DNA of 24,396 nucleotides. It comes from an uncultured Methanosarcinales archaeon. GTDB taxonomy: Archaea > Nanobdellota > Nanobdellia > Woesearchaeales > ARS49. Below are positions 6,658-24,259 of the stretch, piece by piece. A program made the position numbers and the translations under genes. Under the pieces are notes generated by a model that did no database searches, was not told the origin of the DNA, and saw nothing but the letters and a program-made list of their open reading frames with translations. Within the stretch, counting starts at the first letter, position 1; every line of letters starts with the position of its first letter. Location: the NCBI GenBank assembly GCA_964472615.1, contig CAYYLN010000002.1, positions 1-24,396 of the forward strand. The letters run 5' to 3'.

Positions 6658-7995
6658 ATGCGCACGGCGATGTTCCTCACACTGATCCTGCTCCTCAGCA
6701 CAACTGCGTCTGCCTTCTCGACGACGAGCATCGTGCAGGGCACTGAGCCGGTCGTGTACGGCGACATTGTCGCATTCCTCACGCTTGAGGACTTTATCGA
6801 TCAAGACTTGAACAGCGACGGCGACCAGGCAGACCGCGTCCTCCAGTATTATGACACCCGCACTGAGAAAGTCACGAACACCGGCAAAGAAGCACGGCAG
6901 CCAGCCCTCTTCGGCAAGATTCTTGCCTTTACCGATGACACGCGCATCCTCCGGCTTTACACTATTGACGACAACAAAGTCATCGAGACAAACGTGCGGG
7001 GCGCATCGCCCTCGCTGTATGCGAAAACCGTCGCGCTCACGACTGCTGAAGAGGACATCGGCATCGACCTCACTGGCGATGAAGACACGCGTGACACCGT
7101 GATCCGGCAGTATGACACGGGCAGTGAGGTCGCTACCAACACCAACGCCGTCGGCGAAAACCCGGTCTTACTCGACGATTTCCTCATCTTCACGACACGC
7201 GAGGACGCCCTCGAGGCAGACCTCAACAATGACGGCGACCGTGACGACACCATCATCCGCGCCATGGATATCGACACCAACCAGATCGTGAACACCCGCG
7301 TCACCGGCACGAATCCTGTCGGCTACAAACACGAGACCATCATCATCACCGACGACAAGAAGTTCTGGACCCTCAACATCCCGAACAGCGAGAAACAACC
7401 GACCGGTGTCTCCGGCAATGATCCGTCGCTCTATCAGGACATGCTCGTCTACGAACGCGATGGCACGCTGATGCTCTATCGTCTCAGCACCGGCGTCGAG
7501 AAATCCCTCGGCATCATGGGCAAGTATCCTGCGCTCTTCGACCATCCCCTTGGCTTTGTGGCCCACAACAAGACCATCGCGGTCCCCAAAGGAGAGGATC
7601 CGGACAATGACTATGTTCCTGATTTCGCAGACAACTGCCCAGACCAGGCGAACGAAAACCAAGCAGATGCAGACAAGGACGGCCTTGGCGACGTATGTGA
7701 TGACACGCCTCTTCCTGAAGAAAAGAAGCCCGAACCTGTCGCTCCACAGGCGACTGCACACGTCACCGAGCCGCCCATCGAGCCCGTGTTCACGACGCAA
7801 GCCGAGCCAGAAACACCTCCTGCGCCAGTTGAACGCAAAGCCATCCCTGACACACTCGCCTTGCAGAAAGAAAAGGACGACCGCGAGCCCACGTACTGGT
7901 TCCTCATCGCGGTCGGGCTTATGGTCATCGGCGTCCTGCTGTATTTCTTCATGCCGCGCTGGCTCCACAAACGCAGAAAAAGCTTTGGGTTTTAA
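6658..7995 (+). CDS. Cell-surface protein (445 aa): signal peptide, three DxNxDGD Ca-binding repeats, thrombospondin type-3-like repeat, Pro/Glu/Thr linker, C-terminal TM anchor
   Basis: MRTAMFLTLILLLSTTASA; DLNSDGDQADRVLQYYD / DLTGDEDTRDTVIRQYD / DLNNDGDRDDTIIRAMD; DPDNDYVPDFADNCPDQANENQADADKDGLGDVCD; WFLIAVGLMVIGVLLYFFM followed by HKRRK. Confidence 0.85.
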   Translation: MRTAMFLTLILLLSTTASAFSTTSIVQGTEPVVYGDIVAFLTLEDFIDQDLNSDGDQADRVLQYYDTRTEKVTNTGKEARQPALFGKILAFTDDTRILRLYTIDDNKVIETNVRGASPSLYAKTVALTTAEEDIGIDLTGDEDTRDTVIRQYDTGSEVATNTNAVGENPVLLDDFLIFTTREDALEADLNNDGDRDDTIIRAMDIDTNQIVNTRVTGTNPVGYKHETIIITDDKKFWTLNIPNSEKQPTGVSGNDPSLYQDMLVYERDGTLMLYRLSTGVEKSLGIMGKYPALFDHPLGFVAHNKTIAVPKGEDPDNDYVPDFADNCPDQANENQADADKDGLGDVCDDTPLPEEKKPEPVAPQATAHVTEPPIEPVFTTQAEPETPPAPVERKAIPDTLALQKEKDDREPTYWFLIAVGLMVIGVLLYFFMPRWLHKRRKSFGF

Positions 7996-8933
7996 CGGGC
8001 GCACAAATACGCATGCAGTATTCGGAGACCATCCTCGAGCGATGTGTGCGGCTTCCAGCCCAAGAGCTTCTCTGCCTTGCTCACGTCCGCATACGTCTGT
8101 GAGACATCGCCCTCTCGCCGCGGCTGGGGATTTCTGATAGCATTCTTACCCACGATTTTTTCAAGCGTCTCAATGAATACGTTGAGCTCCACCGGGCTTG
8201 AGTTACCAAGATTGATGATCTCAAACCGCAGATCAGCGTCCGTAGCAGCAAGCACTCCTTCCACGATGTCGTCGATGAACGTGTAATCCCTGCGGCTCGC
8301 GCCATCGCCGTACACCTCAATCGGTTCGCTACGCATAATGCTCCGCATGAATTTGTACGGCGCCATGTCCGGCCGGCCGCGAGGACCATACACGGTGAAG
8401 AACCGCAAGCACGTCGCAGGCAAACCGAATTTTGCATAGGTCCAACACCAGAGTTCTCCCAAGCGCTTTGTCACACCATAGGGGCTGATTTGCGTGTCCG
8501 CAGGGTCAGTCTCGCGGAATGGAACTTCAGCGCGTTCACCATAGACTGAAGAGCTCGAAGCAAAGATGAAATTCTTGACGTTCGACTTCTGGGCAAGATC
8601 AAGCAGAATGGCGGTTCCCGTGACATTCCCATCATAATAGAGCTTGGGATTCTTGAGCGAAGGACGCACTCCTGCGCGCGCAGCAAGATGGATGACTTTG
8701 TCCGGTTGTTCTTTCGTGAAGGTGCATTGCATCCCGGCTTCATGCGTAATATCCGCCTCGCAGAGATCAAACGACCTATGGCCTACTATTCCTGCAATGT
8801 TGTCACGCTTGATGCGAGGATCATAATAGTCATTGAAGTTGTCGACCCCGACAACGCAATCGCCGCGCTTCAGCAACGCCTCACAGACGTGGCTGCCGAT
8901 GAATCCCGCAGCACCAGTCACGAGGTATTTCAT
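7992..8933 (-). CDS. NAD-dependent NDP-sugar epimerase/dehydratase (UDP-glucuronate 4-epimerase/WcaG-like SDR)
   Basis: VTGAAGFIGSH, HLAARAGVRPS, ASSSSVYG, YGVTK, LRFFTVYGPRGRPDMA, RDYTFIDDIVEG. Confidence 0.93.
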   Translation of the reverse strand: MKYLVTGAAGFIGSHVCEALLKRGDCVVGVDNFNDYYDPRIKRDNIAGIVGHRSFDLCEADITHEAGMQCTFTKEQPDKVIHLAARAGVRPSLKNPKLYYDGNVTGTAILLDLAQKSNVKNFIFASSSSVYGERAEVPFRETDPADTQISPYGVTKRLGELWCWTYAKFGLPATCLRFFTVYGPRGRPDMAPYKFMRSIMRSEPIEVYGDGASRRDYTFIDDIVEGVLAATDADLRFEIINLGNSSPVELNVFIETLEKIVGKNAIRNPQPRREGDVSQTYADVSKAEKLLGWKPHTSLEDGLRILHAYLCAR

Positions 8934-10194: not shown

Positions 10195-10278
10195 GCGGCT
10201 GTGCCGGAGTGGCCAAACGGGGCAGGCTTAGGACCTGCTGGCTTAGTGCCTTCCAAGGTTCGAATCCTTGCGGCCGCA
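10195..10278 (+). tRNA. trnL: tRNA-Leu (anticodon TAG), CCA not encoded
   Basis: Acceptor GCGGCTG/CGGCCGC, D-loop AGTGGCCAAA, anticodon arm GCAGG-CTTAGGA-CCTGC, long variable arm, T arm CAAGG-TTCGAAT-CCTTG. TATATATAA at ~10158-10166. Confidence 0.97.
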
Positions 10279-16234: not shown

Positions 16235-16879
16235 ATGCCATTTGAAGCAAAAAACTATGACTCATTGTTGGGATTGCAAGGATTTTCTGACCAATTACTG
16301 AAGAATCACTTTACGCTCTATCAAGGCTATGTGACGAACACAAACAAGCTTGCCGATGCTCTTGCCGCGATGCTCAAAGAAGGCAAGCAGGCAACCCCTG
16401 AATTTGCAGAGCTCAAGCGACGCTTTGGCTGGGAATTCAACGGCATGCGGCTGCACGAGCTCTACTTTGGCAACCTGTCGCCGACCAGCAGGTCGGCGAG
16501 CATGCTCGGAAATCAGCAGATTTCCGACATCGCCAAGGGAGACAAGGCAATGCCTGAATCGCTGAAGAAGCAACTCGCCAAGGACTTTGGCAGCGTCGAA
16601 AACTGGGAAAAGGATATGAAAGCCATCTGCGCCATGCGCGGCATCGGTTGGGCAGTCCTGTATTACGACATCGGTAACAAGCGTCTCATCAATGTCTGGA
16701 TCAATGAGCACGATGTCGGCCACCTGACCACATGCGCGCCCATCCTGGTCATCGACGTCTTCGAACACGCGTTCATGATCGACTACGGCATCAAGCGCGC
16801 GGAGTACATCGAGGCACTGTGGAAAGTCCTCAATTGGGAAGAAGCAGAACGACGGCTGAAGCTCGTCGGGTTCAAGTAA
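16235..16879 (+). CDS. sod: Fe/Mn superoxide dismutase (214 aa)
   Basis: Metal ligands in NHFTLYQGYV, EFNGMRLHELYF and DVFEHAFMIDYG. Confidence 0.93.
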   Translation: MPFEAKNYDSLLGLQGFSDQLLKNHFTLYQGYVTNTNKLADALAAMLKEGKQATPEFAELKRRFGWEFNGMRLHELYFGNLSPTSRSASMLGNQQISDIAKGDKAMPESLKKQLAKDFGSVENWEKDMKAICAMRGIGWAVLYYDIGNKRLINVWINEHDVGHLTTCAPILVIDVFEHAFMIDYGIKRAEYIEALWKVLNWEEAERRLKLVGFK

Positions 16880-16936: not shown

Positions 16937-17155
16937 ATGGCGACAACCATTCAAATCAGCGAAGAACTGCGCAAACAACTCCAAGAGCGCAAGCTCTATG
17001 AGAAAGAAAGCTATGAAGAGGTCATTCGCGACCTTATTGAGGATACTCTTGAACTGAACGAGCAAACGAAGAAGGAAATGGCGCAATCTCGTGCAGAGAT
17101 CAAAGCCGGAAAATTCCTCACACTTGAACAAGTCAAAAAGAAATACGGGCTATAA
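16937..17155 (+). CDS. Putative antitoxin (RelB-like, N-terminal ribbon-helix-helix, 72 aa)
   Basis: MATTIQISEELRKQL...ESYEEVIRDLIED...GKFLTLEQVKKKYGL. Abuts a RelE-like toxin. TTTATATA 16906-16913 at leaderless spacing. Confidence 0.8.
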   Translation: MATTIQISEELRKQLQERKLYEKESYEEVIRDLIEDTLELNEQTKKEMAQSRAEIKAGKFLTLEQVKKKYGL

Positions 17156-17404
17156 ATGTACGACGTCGTCTTCTCGGAGCTTGCCGACAAACAATTCGGA
17201 AATCTCGACCGTGTTATGAAAGAACGTATCAAATCTGTGCTTGAACGCATCCGCATCCGTCCCGAATCCTATGTCAAGAAACTCGTTGGAGAGCAAGGGC
17301 ATAGTTTGCGCGTTGGTGACTACCGTCTCATACTCGACATCGATCAGGGAAAACTGAGCATACTCGTCATCAAGATAGGACATCGAAGCACGATTTACGA
17401 TTGA
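17156..17404 (+). CDS. relE: RelE/ParE family toxin (82 aa)
   Basis: MYDVVFS..A.KQF..LD...KERI, LRVGDYRLI, VIKIGHRSTIY. ATG immediately follows the antitoxin stop. Confidence 0.88.
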   Translation: MYDVVFSELADKQFGNLDRVMKERIKSVLERIRIRPESYVKKLVGEQGHSLRVGDYRLILDIDQGKLSILVIKIGHRSTIYD

Positions 17405-17413
17405 GGTGATCGA

Positions 17414-17620
17414 ATGATGAAAACAGTCTACGTCTGCGAAGGCAGCTGCAAGGGCATTGCCACCGAAGAGCAATGGAACGCCGGCGCTAAGAGATGCAGC
17501 GCCAAGAACTGTGACCTCTTCCAGAAATACCTGCAGAAGCGCAGCAAGTGCGAGAAATGTGGCGCGATCTTCATGCCTGCAGAGAAGCACATCTGCGTTG
17601 GCGGGAAAAGTTGTTGCTAA
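17414..17620 (+). CDS. Small Cys-rich, probably Zn-binding protein (68 aa)
   Basis: CEGSC, CSAKNC, CEKC, HIC, terminal CC; SD GAGGTGA overlapping the relE stop. Confidence 0.7.
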   Translation: MMKTVYVCEGSCKGIATEEQWNAGAKRCSAKNCDLFQKYLQKRSKCEKCGAIFMPAEKHICVGGKSCC

Positions 17621-17679
17621 ATAGTAGTAAATCATTATTTATCTTCTCTATTTAAAATAATTCTTTTTCCTTGAAACAT

Positions 17680-17725
17680 CGCCGAAACTCGTTTCGGCGG
17701 GCTTCGGGGAACTGCGTTCCTCGAA
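17680..17725. repeat. Two adjacent palindromes upstream of the RNR promoter
   Basis: CGCCGAAAC-TC-GTTTCGGCG (17680-17699) and TTCGGGGAAC-TGC-GTTCCTCGAA (17703-17725); GAAACAT at 17673 and 17723. Confidence 0.65.
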
Positions 17726-17776
17726 ACATTTAAATAAAAACAATCATTGACTTTTGCATTGGAAAAGGGGTAAAAC

Positions 17777-19853
17777 ATGCCTAAAATCATCCAGATACGG
17801 AAAAAAGAAGGTTCTCTCGTGCCTTTTGAAGCCCCAAAGCTCGAAAAATCGCTCGAAAACGCCCTGATCTCTGCCCGGCACAAGAACCCTAAGATCGCCA
17901 AAAAACTTGCTGGCATGGTCATTAACATCCTTGAAAAACACATTCCCAAAGGCATCGTGTCTACGGTCAAGGATGTTCAGGATGTCATCATCGAGGTCCT
18001 GCAGAAGAACAAGCTCCCCCAGATCGCCAAGGCGTATGTCGAACACCGCAAGATTCACAAGGAAGCAGTCGGCTTCAGGACCGTGTACGGTGTCCGTGAT
18101 GACCTGGGCATGAGCACCAACGCTATCATTGTCCTCGCAAAACGCTACCTGCTCAAAAACGATCAAGGCGTAATCATTGAAACCCCTGCGCGGCTATTCC
18201 GCAGGGTTGCAAAAGCGCTCGCCTCAGTCGAGGCAGTGTACGGCAAGAGCGTCAGAAAGGCCGAAGAAGAATTCTATGATCTCATGGCAAACCTCTCCTT
18301 CCTTCCCAACACACCAACACTCATGAACGCAGGCACGCCTCTTGGGCAGCTCTCTGCCTGTTTTGTACTCCCTGTCGAAGACGATTTGCGACAGATCTTC
18401 CACACGCTCGAGAACCAGATGCTCATCCACCAAAGCGGCGGCGGCACAGGATTTTCCTTTGGTCGCCTAAGGCCCCAAGGCGACCTTGTGCGCTCAACGC
18501 AAGGCGTTGCTTCCGGCCCGGTAAGCTTCATGACCATTTATGACAAGGCAACCGAGGTCATCAAGCAGGGCGGCAAGCGCCGGGGGGCCAACATGGGCAT
18601 CCTGCCTGTCGAGCACCCCGACATCGAGGAATTCATCAACGCCAAGCGCAAGCCAGGAATGCTCGAGAACTTCAACGTCTCAGTCTCGATCTCAGACAAG
18701 TTCATGGACGCAGTTGCCAAGGACAAGGAATTCGAACTCATCAACCCGAGAAACAAACAAGCGGTGAAAAAAGTCAAGGCAAGAGGCCTGTGGAACCAGA
18801 TGATCCAATCCGCATGGGAATGCGGCGATCCAGGAATTGTATTCATCGATGAGATCAATCGCAGACAGCCCACGCCCGAAATCGGCATCATCGAGAGCAC
18901 AAATCCCTGCGGCGAAATCCCGTTGCTCCCCTACGAGCCGTGCAACCTTGGCAGCATCAACCTCGCCAAAATGGTCAAGAACGGCAAGATCAACTGGGAA
19001 AAGCTCAAGCACGTGGCCAGAACCGCAACGCACTTCCTCGACAATGTCATCGACGCAAACCGTTGGCCCCTGCCTGAGATTGAACAGATCGCCAAGGCAA
19101 ACCGCAAGATCGGCCTTGGCGTCATGGGCTGGGCAGAATGCCTTGCCCGCTGCGGTATCCGCTACGACTCAGACAAAGCCATTGAGCTCGCGGAAAAAGT
19201 CGCGAAATTCATCCAGGACGAAAGCCGGAAAAAATCAGCCGAGCTCGGCCAGGAACGTGGCAATTTCCCCAATCTGCCCAGAAGCGTCTACGCCAAAAAA
19301 TACAAGACCCTGCGCAATGCGACATGCACGACAGTCGCCCCAACCGGCACGATCAGCATCATCGCAAACGCGACTTCAGGCATCGAGCCCTTCTTTGCGG
19401 TCGCGTTTGTGAGGGACGTCATGGGCGGTACCAAACTCCTCGAGACCAACCCGTATTTCGAACAGCTTGCCAAGGAGCGGGGCTTTTCCAGCAAACAACT
19501 CATGGTCAAGATTGCAAAACAGGGCGGCATCCAGAAAACCCCTGGCATTCCCGCTGACGTGAAGCGTATCTTTGTGACGAGCTTTGACATCAAGCCCGAA
19601 TGGCATGTCAAACACCAAGCCGCCTGGCGACAACGCGGTCAGCAAGACCGTGAATCTGCCTGTGCATGCCAAGCCGCAGGACATTGACAAGATTTACCAG
19701 CTCGCCCACAAGCTCAAATGCAAAGGCATCACGATATTCCGTTACGGCAGCAAGAGAGAACAAGTCCTGTACGTTGGCAAGCAGGCGGCAGAGCACATCA
19801 CCGTCGAGGAAGAATTCGCAGGCGGCTGCCCATCAGGAGTGTGTCCGTTCTGA
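17777..19853 (+). pseudogene. nrdJ: Class II (AdoCbl-dependent) ribonucleotide reductase with N-terminal ATP cone; frameshifted at 19628/19629 (real lesion or assembly error)
   Basis: ATP cone (IRKKEGSLVPFEAPKL), PNTPTLMNAG, LSACFVLP, GGGTG, GKRRGANM, TNPCGEIPL, CNLGSINL, APTGTISI. The C-terminus DNAVSKTVNLP...KGITIFR...GGCPSGVCPF* is in another frame (ORF 19584..19853). Confidence 0.9.
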
Positions 19854-19854
19854 C

Positions 19855-20379
19855 ATGGCAAAGACAAAAGCACCGGTCTATCTCTGGACTGGCCAAGGCT
19901 GGGGAAAGACAACGTCGTCATTAGGAGTTGCCCTGCGCGCGATGGGTCACGGCTACAAGGTCGTCATCGTGCAATTCATGAAAGGCTGGGGTGATGTCGT
20001 GGGAGAATTCAAGATCCGCACCAAGCTCGCGCCCTTGTACGAGATCCACCAATTCGGCCGCAAGGAATGGATCAACCTCAAGAACCCCGCAAAAGTCGAC
20101 AAAGACCTTGCCAAGAAAGCACTTGCATTCGCCAAGAAAAAGGCAAAAGAGAAGCCGTTCCTGCTTGTCCTCGACGAGGTCAATCTTGCCTGTGCCATCG
20201 GGCTGTTGAAGACTGATGATCTTATCGCGTTCCTTGACACGATCCCGCAAGAAGTTCACATCTACCTGACCGGCCGTTATGCACCACCTGCCCTTCTTTG
20301 GAGAGCAGATTACGTCAATGAAATCGTCATGATCAAAGGACCCAAGAAGATCCGCGGCGAGAAAGGCATTGATTACTGA
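19855..20379 (+). CDS. cobO: Cob(I)alamin adenosyltransferase, CobA/CobO/BtuR type (174 aa)
   Basis: YLWTGQGWGKTTSSLGVALRAMGHG, VVIVQFMKG, LVLDEV, LTGRYAP, ADYVNEI. ATG 1 nt after the nrdJ stop. Confidence 0.92.
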   Translation: MAKTKAPVYLWTGQGWGKTTSSLGVALRAMGHGYKVVIVQFMKGWGDVVGEFKIRTKLAPLYEIHQFGRKEWINLKNPAKVDKDLAKKALAFAKKKAKEKPFLLVLDEVNLACAIGLLKTDDLIAFLDTIPQEVHIYLTGRYAPPALLWRADYVNEIVMIKGPKKIRGEKGIDY

Positions 20380-21146
20380 TGGCATCGTACAGGATTTCTT
20401 CGCTCGATGAACGTCGGGGCTTTTATGCGCACGAATTCAATATTCGCGTTCTCGGAGAATGGTTTGCTGGTTCGCTCAGCAGAGTGCCGCAGTTCTTTGC
20501 TGTCGATTTCGGCACGGAAACAAAGCTCAGCACTGACTCAAACAAGATCGGCAAGATCATCGTGCTCCAACCACATCTCTCACTCGGCCAATTGCGCGAA
20601 AAACTCTTCCTGTACGCTCCTGAAGACGCTTATTATGACACGCGCATTTACAAGAACGTCAACGACTGCTTTACCTGCCCAGAACATCCTGGCTTTTGTG
20701 CTGATTGCCCTGAACTCGCTGGCCAAGAACTCGTCTTTGACCTTGATCCAGAGAACATTGATTGCCCCCACTGCGGCAAGAAACAATTCCCGCACTTCTG
20801 CAATTACTGCCTCGGCCTCAGCCTGCAGGCAGGCGCCAAGCTCAGCGATGCCTTGCGTGACATGGGATATCATGCAATACGCTTGGTCTATTCCGGCCGT
20901 GGCTGCCATGTGCACGTCACTGATCCCCACGCCATGAACCTCAGCACTGAAGAACGCGTTCACCTTGCCCGTGATCTCAGACGATTCCCGATGGATTCCT
21001 GGGTCACCACAACCAAGCGACTCATCCGACTGCCGTATTCCTTGCATGCGTTGATCTCACGGATCGCGATGCCGATCACCGAAAATGATGTCCAACGATT
21101 TGATGCAGAAAATGATGCGCGTGTGCTGCCGCGCTTCTTGGGATAA
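20379..21146 (+). CDS. priS: Archaeo-eukaryotic primase (PriS-like) with two Cys clusters (255 aa)
   Basis: Motif I ELVFDLD, motif II YSGRGCHVHV, motif III DSWVT...RLIRLPYSLH; CFTC...CADC and CPHC...CNYC. TGATG overlap with cobO. Confidence 0.85.
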   Translation: MASYRISSLDERRGFYAHEFNIRVLGEWFAGSLSRVPQFFAVDFGTETKLSTDSNKIGKIIVLQPHLSLGQLREKLFLYAPEDAYYDTRIYKNVNDCFTCPEHPGFCADCPELAGQELVFDLDPENIDCPHCGKKQFPHFCNYCLGLSLQAGAKLSDALRDMGYHAIRLVYSGRGCHVHVTDPHAMNLSTEERVHLARDLRRFPMDSWVTTTKRLIRLPYSLHALISRIAMPITENDVQRFDAENDARVLPRFLG

Positions 21147-21338
21147 TTATTCTTCCTCTTCCTTTTCTTCGTGGTGCTCTTCGTCTTCCTCGTCCTTCTG
21201 TTCAACTTCCTTGATCAGTTCGTCGACTTTTTCAGCGCATTCCTCTGCATGCTTTTCAGTCGTGTGCTCGATCTGCTCGAATTCCTTCTGGAGCTCGGGC
21301 TCAGGATGCTTTTTTTTCTTCTTGATGTCTTCCCCCAT
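21147..21338 (-). CDS. Small highly charged protein (63 aa, basic N-terminus, Glu/Asp/His-rich tail)
   Basis: MGEDIKKKKKHPEPELQKEFEQ...EEDEEHHEEKEEEE; ATG 21338 is ~28 nt from TTTATATA (21363-21370). Confidence 0.6.
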   Translation of the reverse strand: MGEDIKKKKKHPEPELQKEFEQIEHTTEKHAEECAEKVDELIKEVEQKDEEDEEHHEEKEEEE

Positions 21339-21437
21339 CGGGTCGGAAACACCCGTACAGAGTATATAAACATTGGTATTCCCCTCAGTCTGTGGGCATT
21401 GCCAAGTTTTATTAACGACGCAGAATTGGCAACACGC

Positions 21438-23702
21438 ATGGGGGGAGATTACCGCACCATTCAAGCATGGGCTGTGCACAACGTCGCTGACCGCGAACTC
21501 TGTAAGAAAATAAAACAGGACATCCGCGAGGCATGGGGCACCGACAACACCAAAGCCAAGGCAGTGTACGCCTTTCTGTACCGGCTCGGTGAAGCAGAGA
21601 ACCTTCCGAACACCGTAACAAGCATCATTGTGAAAGATCGTGTCAGAACAAGCACGCGCCAATCCTGCAGGGCCTGCGGCACACTGCATGGCGATGGCTA
21701 CCGTTGCTCTCCCGCAAGAGGCAATGATCGCGAAGACCTTGATTTCTTCATCGGATACGTGTGCGCGAAAAAGCGCCTCGCACGCTATGGTCTGAACGTC
21801 GGTGTCCTGGCAGAAGCAGACAAGCGCGGTGCTGAAAAAAAGAAACACAAAATCAGTGAAACCCTCGAGGACTTGGTGCTGCACGAACAAGGCCTTGAAG
21901 TCCTATTGATTACCGGTGCTGCTGGGAGAAATGAAGAATTCATCGGAAACCAACTCAACTGGCTTTTCAAGCATCAAGACAACCTGCCCGAAGACGCCCA
22001 AGTAGCACTTAAACACTTGCGTGATCCCTACCATCGGCCAACACGTCAAGAACTTGCCATTGTCCTCCAAACTGTTGCACATCTGCGCAAATTCCCTGCA
22101 GACGCCTACGAAGGGGTGGCGAAAGACGTAGAGCTCATGGCAAAGGAACAACTTGCTCCTGAGGATCTCGCGCGACATCTCCGCCAGTTCACGTGCCTCA
22201 CTGCACAACAAGCAGACGAATTACTCAGCCAGACTAAAGAAACGTATCGCAGTTTTAGACTGAGGAAAAACACTGCATTCCTGAACGCGTATGAGGACAC
22301 GTCACTCGCATTCATTTTCGACGCGATCATCCCCGCGCTCGAGCACGACCAGCCCTTGTGGCATGATGACCTCGTGAACCAGCGTTATGTGTACAACAAG
22401 GTCTGGGCTCCGCAGGATTATCGACTGGCTATCGGCTGCCTGAATCGTTGGGCCTTTGGGAGCGTCAAGCATCTTGAAGGCGCTGACCGCCTTAGACTAT
22501 GCAACATCGCCACCCGACTTGAATCTGTTCCTGAATTCAAGGAAAAGATCGAAGGATTAGTGGTTCTCAGCAGGAAGCTCGCATACGCGCGCTTTCACAC
22601 ACAAAGTGATGAATACGCGCGGCTGAAACGCGTCAAGGAAGAATTAGCGCAATTATCTGACAAGAAAAAGTACGGAACGTTCACGCAAGCAGCCCGTGCA
22701 ATCGCAGAAGTGCTCAAGGACCCCTGCCGTCTCCTGAAGACCTCATGTATCCCGGTAGAAGCATTTGGCGATACTGCCAAGACCACATTGACGCTTGACC
22801 ACGTGCTTGCAACAATCACCCAAGCATATACGCGGGATGCCCGCATTGTTGACTTTCAAAAGCGCAGCCTTTCCATGATTCTTGAGCATACCGCGTACGG
22901 CATCGTTCGCAAAGCTGATGCCAAAAAACTTGTTCGCATCTACGAGCACGTCAAGAGCTACGCACCTCTCGAACATCTTGCGCAAGAACAGCAGGCAGTG
23001 TGCAGGCTTGTGCGAGAAATTGCACAGAGCGGTCTTGTCAAAAGGATCGCAGGATTCCCTGATTTCCAACGCTTCCGTGAGCCCTTGTCCATTGATCCGC
23101 GAATCTTCAAAGGCGAGCATCAGAACAAGCGCCTTCATGTGCTTCAACGTGTTACTGCATTGATCCATGATGGCTTGGCGCGATTGCCTGGGCAAGGGCC
23201 TGCTGAAAAGAAGATCACGGCAGCCCTTGAGTACCTCAAGATGTGCAGGGCAGAGGGGTATCGCGTACTTGACCTGTATAGCCCAGACACGGATTGGCAT
23301 TCATGGGAAACACCTGAAGACTTCACTGCAACACAACCTTGCCTTGAAACATACGATTCCCCGCAAACCAAAGCCCAGAAGCGCAAGGTGCAAGTCACGT
23401 TCACCGATGTCTCTTGCATCGCGACTCACTACGAGCGCTTCGCGACCGGCGTGCCTGCGCATTCTCCGCAATTCCAATCCCTCTGGAATACCCTCTCCAA
23501 GGCAGCAGCCGATGGCTTGCTGTACGAGCGGAAATGGTCTCGTTCACGAAAAAATTACATCCAGGAATTGCTGCCAGCGAAAGCGCGAGAACCCATTGAT
23601 GCACTGCTGACAGAACCAGTCTCGGTGCAGAATAAGGTATTCATCGCGCGTCCTGTTATGACGCTCTTGCAACAGTATGCTCAGAACGTGCGCAAGCATT
23701 AA
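21438..23702 (+). CDS. Large hypothetical, mostly helical protein (~754 aa) with an N-terminal Cys/His motif
   Basis: Long open frame. ATG 21438 chosen because the upstream in-frame part overlaps the acidic ORF and its TATA box (TTG 21399 is an alternative). CRACGTLH...IGYVC. Confidence 0.75.
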   Translation: MGGDYRTIQAWAVHNVADRELCKKIKQDIREAWGTDNTKAKAVYAFLYRLGEAENLPNTVTSIIVKDRVRTSTRQSCRACGTLHGDGYRCSPARGNDREDLDFFIGYVCAKKRLARYGLNVGVLAEADKRGAEKKKHKISETLEDLVLHEQGLEVLLITGAAGRNEEFIGNQLNWLFKHQDNLPEDAQVALKHLRDPYHRPTRQELAIVLQTVAHLRKFPADAYEGVAKDVELMAKEQLAPEDLARHLRQFTCLTAQQADELLSQTKETYRSFRLRKNTAFLNAYEDTSLAFIFDAIIPALEHDQPLWHDDLVNQRYVYNKVWAPQDYRLAIGCLNRWAFGSVKHLEGADRLRLCNIATRLESVPEFKEKIEGLVVLSRKLAYARFHTQSDEYARLKRVKEELAQLSDKKKYGTFTQAARAIAEVLKDPCRLLKTSCIPVEAFGDTAKTTLTLDHVLATITQAYTRDARIVDFQKRSLSMILEHTAYGIVRKADAKKLVRIYEHVKSYAPLEHLAQEQQAVCRLVREIAQSGLVKRIAGFPDFQRFREPLSIDPRIFKGEHQNKRLHVLQRVTALIHDGLARLPGQGPAEKKITAALEYLKMCRAEGYRVLDLYSPDTDWHSWETPEDFTATQPCLETYDSPQTKAQKRKVQVTFTDVSCIATHYERFATGVPAHSPQFQSLWNTLSKAAADGLLYERKWSRSRKNYIQELLPAKAREPIDALLTEPVSVQNKVFIARPVMTLLQQYAQNVRKH

Positions 23703-24259
23703 AAGAGCGCTTTGACCAGGATGGTAAGCACCAACATTGACCCAAGGTCTGCAAGACTTGTCGCCAACGGGATCAGGTAATTGTCTGGGTCATGCTTCTT
23801 CTTGTACACGTAGAACCCGCCTACAACGCACACCACGAATAAGATCAGCACGAGCAACCAGGTCGTGAACAACGCGATGAGCAGGATACGCTGGAAGATG
23901 TCCCAATGCATGTCAAAACCATTGAAGTGTGCAATGACGCTCGCGAGGACGGTGATATAGACCGCAGACAACGTTCCAATAATCAGCACTTCGCCCAACA
24001 AACGATGCAGCAGGTGCGAGCGCCACCACTGCTTTTCCTTGATGTGCTTCAGGTAAAGCATGGTTGTGAAACGCGACGCGATGATGCTCCCATAATCGCC
24101 CGTCATATCGTTCAAGGCAGGCATCAGGATCAGCAAGGGCAGCAGGAAGAACAGGTTCTGCTTGATGCTCTCAAGACCGAAACCGCCGAGCGTACTCAGC
24201 AAGGACGCAATGATGAGCATGCTCACGCTTTCGGTGATGATTCTCCAGAATAATCTCAT
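23699..24259 (-). CDS. mgtE: MgtE/SLC41-type divalent cation transporter membrane domain (186 aa)
   Basis: LLILMPALNDMTGDYGSIIASRFTT and DPDNYLIPLATSLADL helix-break motifs; five TM segments; SD GGTGA. Confidence 0.85.
   Translation of the reverse strand: MRLFWRIITESVSMLIIASLLSTLGGFGLESIKQNLFFLLPLLILMPALNDMTGDYGSIIASRFTTMLYLKHIKEKQWWRSHLLHRLLGEVLIIGTLSAVYITVLASVIAHFNGFDMHWDIFQRILLIALFTTWLLVLILFVVCVVGGFYVYKKKHDPDNYLIPLATSLADLGSMLVLTILVKALF

Follow-up and report, generated by a model that had tools for sequence, protein, structure and literature searches.

A probable second, stand-alone PriS-type enzyme in a predicted transcription unit with a class II ribonucleotide reductase and a corrinoid adenosyltransferase

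The 24,396-nucleotide stretch analyzed here (the window; contig CAYYLN010000002.1, our C2) belongs to an 852-kb, 94-contig metagenome-assembled genome (MAG; G000) that is 92% complete. At 17777-21146 on the forward strand it carries three co-directional genes, predicted to encode a class II ribonucleotide reductase (RNR; nrdJ, here nrdJ1), an ATP:cob(I)alamin adenosyltransferase (cobO) and a 255-residue archaeo-eukaryotic primase (AEP) that we call mini-PriS. The latter is very likely a second, stand-alone AEP paralog. For the locus as a whole, we consider it probable that NrdJ1, a dedicated CobO and a stand-alone mini-PriS using deoxynucleotides (dNTPs) are encoded as one operon.

The junctions between the three genes are tight. 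The nrdJ1 TGA (19851-19853) is followed by the single base c and then by the cobO ATG at 19855 (TGA-c-ATG, 19851-19857), and the cobO TGA (20377-20379) shares its A with the mini-PriS ATG (20379-20381), a 1-nt overlap reading TGATG at 20377-20381. The gene order, 1-nt spacer and overlap reported in the initial annotation are all borne out by these coordinates. Given the shared strand, the lack of intergenic space and the same order in the relatives G010, L013 and L121, the three genes nrdJ1, cobO and mini-PriS of this Woesearchaeota-type DPANN archaeon are predicted to be transcribed as one unit. No room is left for promoters inside it. A putative promoter core, CGAAACATTTAAATAAAAAC (17722-17741, forward strand), matches the archaeal consensus of B recognition element and TATA box, with the TATA element TTTAAATA at 17729-17736, ∼40 nt 5′ of the nrdJ1 ATG, and is kept in all six close relatives aligned. 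No cobalamin riboswitch was detected before nrdJ1, the window giving no Rfam match other than tRNA.

The mini-PriS gene (20379-21146, forward strand) encodes a protein that matches the Pfam family DNA_primase_S (PF01896) with 34.5 bits, over a cut-off of 26.8, and whose sequence matches in the PDB are to Pyrococcus PriS (E 6e-12). An AlphaFold2 model obtained with 120 homologs (pLDDT 95.5, pTM 0.92) was searched with Foldseek, and the best matches were PriS of P. abyssi, P. furiosus and P. horikoshii (9f26, 1g71 and 1v33; TMq 0.75, E 1.7e-14), followed by eukaryotic Pri1. Motif I, D121-x-D123 in the sequence FDLDPEN (20739-20747), aligns to FDIDAKD of Pyrococcus PriS and is invariant in the 120 family members. 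The same is true of D206 of motif III (20994-20996), which aligns to motif III of Pyrococcus PriS, while in motif II, S172-G-R-G-x-H177-x-H179 (20892-20915), residues G173, R174, G175 and H177 are invariant. The residues expected of the PriS clade (D121/D123, S172-G-R-G-x-H177 and D206) are therefore invariant or nearly so. The model shows a PriS fold with the canonical zinc knuckle between motifs I and II (C129, C132, C141 and C144; 20763-20810), which aligns to the Zn motif of Pyrococcus PriS and in which C129 and C141 are at least 90% conserved. The model and these motifs identify mini-PriS as a genuine PriS-fold AEP with complete catalytic motifs.

Two Cys clusters had been pointed out in the 255-residue protein, and both are present. 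The second is the zinc knuckle. The first, an extra Cys4 cluster upstream of motif I (C97, C100, C107 and C110; 20667-20708), varies between lineages, being absent from most Bathyarchaeia members and from many family members. The model pLDDT falls to 69-88 at this cluster, which may bind a metal. A C-terminal LPxFL was considered as a PCNA-binding motif and rejected, because it lies in a structured segment of the model (pLDDT 95) that corresponds to a conserved element of PriS.

Compared to archaeal replicative PriS (Pyrococcus p41; 1g71, 1v33 and 9f26), mini-PriS has the same fold and is collinear from the N-terminal ERxxFY helix to the C terminus, with motifs I to III and the zinc knuckle in common. 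It differs in the absence of the helical insert (query positions 196 to 205 correspond to chain positions 171 to 280, leaving ∼100 fewer residues between motifs II and III), in the absence of the PriS-CTD and, for the DPANN members, in the extra Cys4 cluster. It also scores well below the equivalog thresholds for replicative PriS, with 65.6 bits against 143.5 for TIGR00335 and 45 against 577 for NF001639. PrimPol belongs to the AEP clade of nucleocytoplasmic large DNA viruses and herpesviruses and has a C-terminal UL52-type zinc finger, whereas mini-PriS belongs to the PriS clade and ends ∼50 residues past motif III with no extra domain, and it is closest to PriS rather than to PrimPol in both sequence and structure. 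The polymerase domains of nonhomologous end joining (LigD-Pol and Methanocella Pol; 2iry and 5dmu) are likewise AEP repair polymerases, stand-alone or modular and of a size similar to mini-PriS, but are clearly more distant than PriS (E ∼1e-6, TMq 0.5). Neither a Ku nor a LigD context was seen, and the ligase encoded a few kilobases from mini-PriS in DPANN loci is a Lig1-type replicative ligase.

Unlike replicative PriS, mini-PriS occurs beside another primase, either canonical or fused. In G000 this is a PriS-PriL fusion of ∼455 residues (C10:24-1403) with the three AEP motifs and a Cys-rich PriL-like C terminus, and the only PF04104 match in the genome (profile positions 87-190) falls inside it. 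No separate PriL was found in the genome or in the window, and the 255-residue AEP is therefore a second, stand-alone enzyme, as the initial annotation had proposed. The situation that would have spoken against that proposal, an only priS with a priL encoded elsewhere, is not what the genome contains. Fused PriS-PriL is the known primase of nanosized archaea (PMC3914693). Like mini-PriS, the fused NEQ395-type enzyme is an AEP core in a DPANN genome working without a separate PriL, but it carries the PriL Fe-S domain and sits on a very long, separate branch of the tree, while mini-PriS has no PriL-like domain. Canonical PriS (369-421 residues, or 457 residues when fused) and PriL were also present in all five other mini-PriS genomes tested, from five lineages, and neither there nor in G000 is mini-PriS a sole PriS with a PriL partner. 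In the tree, mini-PriS is set apart from canonical and fused PriS with an SH-aLRT of 98, and within the family the sequences group by taxonomy, which suggests an old, mainly vertically inherited paralog.

The family is large. Homologs make up 1233 protein clusters at E ≤ 1e-3, mostly of 245-280 residues, and relatives occur in at least 399 archaeal species (GTDB species representatives), among them Woese-, Nano-, Pace- and Micrarchaeota, Bathyarchaeia, Frey- and Jordarchaeia, Archaeoglobaceae, Methanomethyliaceae and Nitrososphaerota. We found no description of the family in the literature; an earlier mention in the AEP classification of Iyer et al. (2005) or in arCOG annotation is possible. 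Several of the genes have one in-frame TAA or TAG (G090:C31:6850-7596, G092:C10:3922-4656, G394 and G469); these may be pseudogenes, which would fit frequent loss of an accessory gene.

We analyzed the neighbors of mini-PriS by unbiased clustering over 80 loci. RNR is the commonest neighbor in DPANN (12 of 25 loci), usually directly upstream and on the same strand. The linkage is not unique to this genome, since the full nrdJ-cobO-mini-PriS order recurs in the three relatives named above, and RNR genes of other NrdJ paralogs precede mini-PriS in further Woesearchaeota. In L017, L020, L031, L056 and L075, an NrdR-like gene (zinc ribbon plus ATP-cone) and a barrel-plus-TSCPD RNR gene are followed by mini-PriS 30-40 nt later. 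The RNRs encoded upstream of mini-PriS fall into at least four clades of the RNR tree, namely, NrdJ1 (window, G010 and L013), NrdJ2 (G012), an RNR3 type (L019, L020 and L056) and a further clade (L031 and L075), three of which coexist as paralogs in G000. The linkage therefore either arose more than once or survived by paralog replacement.

In L157, an NrdR-like gene lies directly upstream of mini-PriS with no RNR between, and in L048, a nanoarchaeote, mini-PriS is followed by genes for a glutaredoxin (Grx) and a thioredoxin reductase (TrxR)-like flavoprotein. In Bathyarchaeia, where the 27-32 loci are such close relatives that they amount to about one observation, the neighbors encode a flavodiiron protein, a thioredoxin-like protein, rubrerythrin, superoxide dismutase (SOD), ferredoxin, a disulfide oxidoreductase, Grx, a protein of the ferredoxin-thioredoxin reductase β-subunit/rubredoxin type, endonuclease III (EndoIII) and peroxiredoxin. 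The window also has a SOD gene (16235-16879), 0.9 kb upstream of nrdJ1, as do L121 and L147. Separately, a deoxyhypusine synthase gene lies beside mini-PriS both in DPANN (L016-L022, L031, L038 and L075), downstream and on the opposite strand, and in Methanomethyliaceae and Nitrososphaerota (L073 and L081), upstream and on the same strand, a recurrence in distant lineages.

The nrdJ1 product has the RNR ATP-cone, all-alpha and barrel domains (PF03477, PF00317 and PF02867; E 9e-126), scores 638 bits with the NCBIfam model TIGR02504 (NrdJ_Z; cut-off 400) and has the NPCGE thiyl-Cys loop. These features identify it as a predicted adenosylcobalamin (AdoCbl)-dependent class II RNR with a fused N-terminal ATP-cone. 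The initial annotation treated the gene as one open reading frame (ORF); in fact, it is frameshifted from frame 2 to frame 3 by an 11-nt deletion at 19625. The 5′ part (17777-19624; 616 codons, frame 2), 63% identical to the intact NrdJ of G010, encodes the ATP-cone, the all-alpha domain and most of the barrel with the NPCGE loop, and past 19624 frame 2 continues as a nonsense tail to a stop at 19687. The 3′ part (19626-19853; 75 codons and TGA, frame 3) encodes the last barrel strand, SKTVNLP, and the C-terminal redox Cys pair, CPSGVC. The conserved C-terminal sequence GDNAVSKTVNLP...CPSGVCPF lies in this frame from 19626, and the 3′ part is 53-91% identical to the C termini of relatives.

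Where relatives read QAAFQKFVDNAVSKT, the window reads QAA, one base (t), and then GDNAVSKT; the Pfam barrel match skips from profile position 481 to 487, the 3′ part covering 487-522; and DNA alignment to the intact 686-residue G010 ortholog leaves an 11-nt gap in the window gene. In 14 of 14 genome relatives and in all metagenome relatives covering the site, 15 nt separate the two parts and the frame is kept; in the window the distance is 4 nt. The last 75 codons are thus out of frame, and the deposited record carries a truncated 636-residue NrdJ product. Programmed frameshifting, or a split NrdJ restarting at the ATG at 19605 (frame 3), is very unlikely, with no slippery site and no relative showing the arrangement.

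As the nrdJ dN/dS against the nearest relative is only 0.075, the deletion either arose very recently as a real lesion or reflects an error of assembly or consensus. The second possibility, in which the operon is fully functional, concerns the break alone and is compatible with our explanation of the locus; we place it slightly short of an even chance. It is favored by the strong purifying selection on both halves, with no other lesion, by the intact gene in all relatives and by the fragmentation of the MAG into 94 contigs. On the other hand, an 11-nt deletion is unusual as an assembler error, and two further RNRs and a second adenosyltransferase in the genome could cover a real loss, which would be tolerable with an nrdR-nrdJ2-pduO set and a third RNR, all intact, on contig C4. 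We found no second assembly of the species at ≥90% identity for NrdJ or mini-PriS, and a metagenome scan gave other species only; with a single assembly on record, nothing independent backs either a real or an artefactual break.

The cobO gene (19855-20379, forward strand; 174 residues) belongs to CobA_CobO_BtuR (PF02572), with an E value of 5.5e-43 over profile positions 5-172 of 172 and the P-loop GQGWGKTT. Its score with the NCBIfam cobA model, 110 bits, is under the equivalog cut-off of 168, and we therefore treat it as a family member without equivalog-level naming. The dN/dS of cobO is 0.06. Through most of the GTDB family, and at 22 of 32 loci from metagenomes, cobO adjoins nrdJ1; one of the surveyed loci, L106 of G015, is from an unpublished genome, and none of our conclusions rests on it. 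A second RNR supercluster lies on the reverse strand of C4 (11725-18244) and comprises RNR3 (1078-residue frame), an NrdR-like gene, NrdJ2 (737-residue frame) and an adenosyltransferase of the PduO type; every gene of it is intact. A single 852-kb genome thus has three genes for RNR large subunits along with adenosyltransferases of two unrelated kinds. The PduO-type enzyme, which is not homologous to CobO, is encoded after NrdJ2 in G000 and in G012, so that each of the two NrdJ paralogs is paired with an adenosyltransferase of a different protein family, the CobA type on C2 and the PduO type on C4.

It had been suggested that corrinoid salvage is dedicated to RNR in this organism. In agreement with this, the 92%-complete genome yielded no match for CobS, CbiB or a permease of the FecCD/BtuC type and just one other protein with a B12-binding domain, and the conserved nrdJ1-cobO adjacency is paralleled by nrdJ2-pduO; a caveat is the frameshift in the nrdJ of the operon. 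The paired modules strongly support an adenosylation dedicated to RNR, and CobO looks like a dedicated cofactor-activation step because no other corrinoid-assembly gene was found. With no detectable cobalamin pathway, the organism therefore depends on externally supplied cobalamin. Pairing of genes for B12-dependent enzymes with adenosyltransferase genes is known from pdu/eut and mutase operons, in which the enzyme is encoded beside the maker of its AdoCbl. The same logic applies here, the difference being that two NrdJ paralogs are served by two unrelated adenosyltransferase families in a genome where no other corrinoid genes were found.

In the mechanism we propose, CobO would convert imported cobalamin to the AdoCbl needed by NrdJ, and mini-PriS, expressed together with dNTP synthesis, would act alone as a dNTP-using primase-polymerase in repriming, gap filling or lesion bypass. 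It would thereby complement a fused replicative primase of the type that uses only ribonucleotides (rNTPs). The fused primase NEQ395 uses rNTPs and not dNTPs in vitro (PMC10250227), while several archaeal PriS have a preference for dNTPs, show DNA polymerase activity and can bypass 8-oxo-dG, cyclobutane pyrimidine dimers and uracil (PMC4538821). With eukaryotic PrimPol and with translesion synthesis by archaeal PriS (PMC4538821), mini-PriS would share the concept of a second AEP that could reprime or bypass with dNTPs. By this analogy, a specific role as a stand-alone, dNTP-using repriming, gap-filling or bypass enzyme co-expressed with dNTP production is a tentative assignment, to which we give somewhat less than even weight.

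A number of observations weigh against this proposal. The substrate preference of mini-PriS cannot be read from its sequence, and nrdJ1, which opens the operon, is interrupted in the present assembly. G000 and one Bathyarchaeia genome have a Y-family polymerase; G010 and the Freyarchaeota and Archaeoglobaceae genomes lack one. Mini-PriS is therefore not the sole candidate bypass enzyme in G000, and the idea that it stands in for a missing Y-family polymerase is not supported. The family is patchy, accessory and often missing. Mini-PriS was found in none of seven same-genus species and in 4 of 40 relatives, which marks it as dispensable, and it is absent from 288 of the 301 genomes of the order (13 of 301 carry it, or 12 of 300 without the unpublished G238); full-length matches were found in 26 of 151 sampled Bathyarchaeia. 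L121 has the SOD gene, a toxin-antitoxin pair, the gene for a 68-residue Cys-rich protein (Cys68), nrdJ1, cobO and mini-PriS, and L147, from the same sample, has the same context without mini-PriS. The linkage to RNR recurs in several DPANN, but it is clade-restricted, with RNR adjacent in none of the eight mini-PriS loci of an independent sample of the order. In Asgard archaea and Archaeoglobaceae, mini-PriS has unrelated neighbors, namely, genes for a P-type ATPase, for FeoAB/DtxR and for a luciferase-like oxidoreductase. Finally, the DPANN neighbors deoxyhypusine synthase, TrmB and DNA ligase are also syntenic, and part of the RNR adjacency may therefore be inherited and not selected.

These last points lead to an alternative in which mini-PriS is a drifting accessory paralog that owes its position in the RNR operon to inherited synteny and has no tie to dNTP supply. 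We regard this as unlikely. It would account for the patchiness (4% of the order and 17% of Bathyarchaeia, with presence varying between close relatives), for the missing RNR adjacency in the second sample together with the synteny of the other DPANN neighbors and for the faster evolution of mini-PriS, which is 72% identical where its neighbors are 85-91% identical. Selection on the gene is relaxed about 2-fold relative to these neighbors, yet with a dN/dS of 0.12 against L121 it remains purifying, and the catalytic residues are invariant in 120 sequences. Inherited synteny also fits poorly with the four distinct NrdJ paralog clades adjoining mini-PriS, with NrdR standing alone in L157, with the Grx and TrxR-like genes downstream in an unrelated nanoarchaeote, which echo the Bathyarchaeia context, and with the 1-nt overlap that couples mini-PriS to cobO.

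Alternatively, mini-PriS could be another catalytic subunit of the replicative primase, pairing with PriL or with the PriL-like domain of the fused primase and making primers under particular conditions. The end-to-end collinearity with PriS, the identity of its closest structures, which are replicative PriS, and a free PriL in every non-DPANN genome tested would be in line with such a role. However, G000 has no separate PriL that we could find, canonical priS-priL pairs are located elsewhere in those other genomes, most relatives lack mini-PriS and its neighbors are RNR and redox genes, not replication genes. We thus find this reading quite improbable.

Viruses often carry RNR and AEP primases, and a remnant of an integrated virus or plasmid replication module could be read into the toxin-antitoxin pair 400 nt upstream, the 50-nt insertion in the promoter and the viral clusters in a protein-atlas feature search (low scores of 0.90-0.92), but this is highly implausible given no PHROG match, a mini-PriS tree that tracks archaeal taxonomy, flanks of housekeeping genes conserved in many species, even GC content across the region and no integrase or tRNA found at the borders of the locus.

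The region upstream of the operon holds several small genes. Cys68 (17414-17620, forward strand), with 10 Cys and no Pfam family, is encoded directly upstream of nrdJ1 and is 72-74% identical in L114, L120, L121, L122 and L147; it is possibly part of the nrdJ1 module and could be a small RNR partner with a metal- or redox-related role. Between the SOD gene and the nrdJ1 region lies the type II toxin-antitoxin pair (16937-17404, forward strand), whose genes are zero bases apart and encode a 72-residue antitoxin of the ribbon-helix-helix/VapB type (PF02697, DUF7557) and an 82-residue ParE/RelE toxin (PF05016). L121 and L122 have the pair, L120 has part of it, and L147 and L114 lack it. A 161-residue ORF on the reverse strand (17150-17635) was considered as a divergent gene and dismissed as spurious: it is antisense to three real forward-strand genes, including the toxin and Cys68 genes, and its apparent conservation in relatives stems from the overlapped toxin and Cys-rich genes.

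Just 5′ of the nrdJ1 TATA element, we observed an insertion of ∼50 nt (∼17672-17721), unique in the genome and flanked by duplicated TTCCTYGAAACAT. It holds a perfect 9-bp palindrome, CGCCGAAAC-TC-GTTTCGGCG (17680-17699), and among the close relatives it occurs in the window and L121 only, which are also the two with mini-PriS. Either a regulator site or a tiny insertion that produced a target-site-like duplication could account for it. A regulatory motif common to both RNR loci was rejected, the palindrome and direct repeat upstream of nrdJ1 being unique in the genome.

Downstream, a convergent gene on the reverse strand (21147-21338) abuts the mini-PriS stop at 21146 and marks the 3′ end of the operon. 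It encodes a 63-residue acidic microprotein (KKKKKH...EEHHEEKEEEE) with no Pfam family, and homologous acidic ORFs lie directly after cobO in relatives without mini-PriS (L108, L123, L124 and L147). It is overlapped by an 843-residue ORF with no Pfam family (21171-23702, forward strand), whose homology to large ORFs of relatives begins only at about residue 84-127, so that its true start is probably downstream of ∼21420. The rest of the window includes genes for an NAD-dependent sugar epimerase/dehydratase (7992-8933, reverse strand), a tRNA-Leu (10195-10278), an S-layer-like protein (PF05124; 10812-13364, forward strand) and a fragment of an MgtE-type cation transporter (23699-24259, reverse strand).

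In surveys of archaeal replication, priS is regarded as a gene with essentially one copy per genome (PMC3914693). What is new here is a minimal PriS paralog alongside the replicative primase in many archaeal phyla, repeatedly encoded near RNR or thiol-redox and oxidative-damage genes. For an 852-kb genome without a detectable cobalamin pathway, the locus reveals a modular and unusually large commitment to B12-dependent dNTP synthesis, but the novelty rests less on this single operon than on the mini-PriS family that it exposes. If mini-PriS is a dNTP-dependent repair or repriming enzyme, it would explain a DNA-synthesizing AEP activity in DPANN despite a fused primase of the rNTP-only type. 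A broader reading by analogy, which we think possible though rather doubtful, is that the family is an archaeal functional counterpart of PrimPol: a stand-alone primase-polymerase of the PriS clade that uses dNTPs, belongs to a dNTP-supply and oxidative-stress regulon (class II RNR, NrdR, Grx/TrxR, SOD, rubrerythrin and EndoIII) and would reprime or fill gaps after oxidative damage. If this is true, mini-PriS would give Archaea an analog of eukaryotic PrimPol and would represent a previously unrecognized DNA-damage-tolerance enzyme in at least 399 species across DPANN, Bathyarchaeia, Asgard, Archaeoglobi and Thermoproteota.

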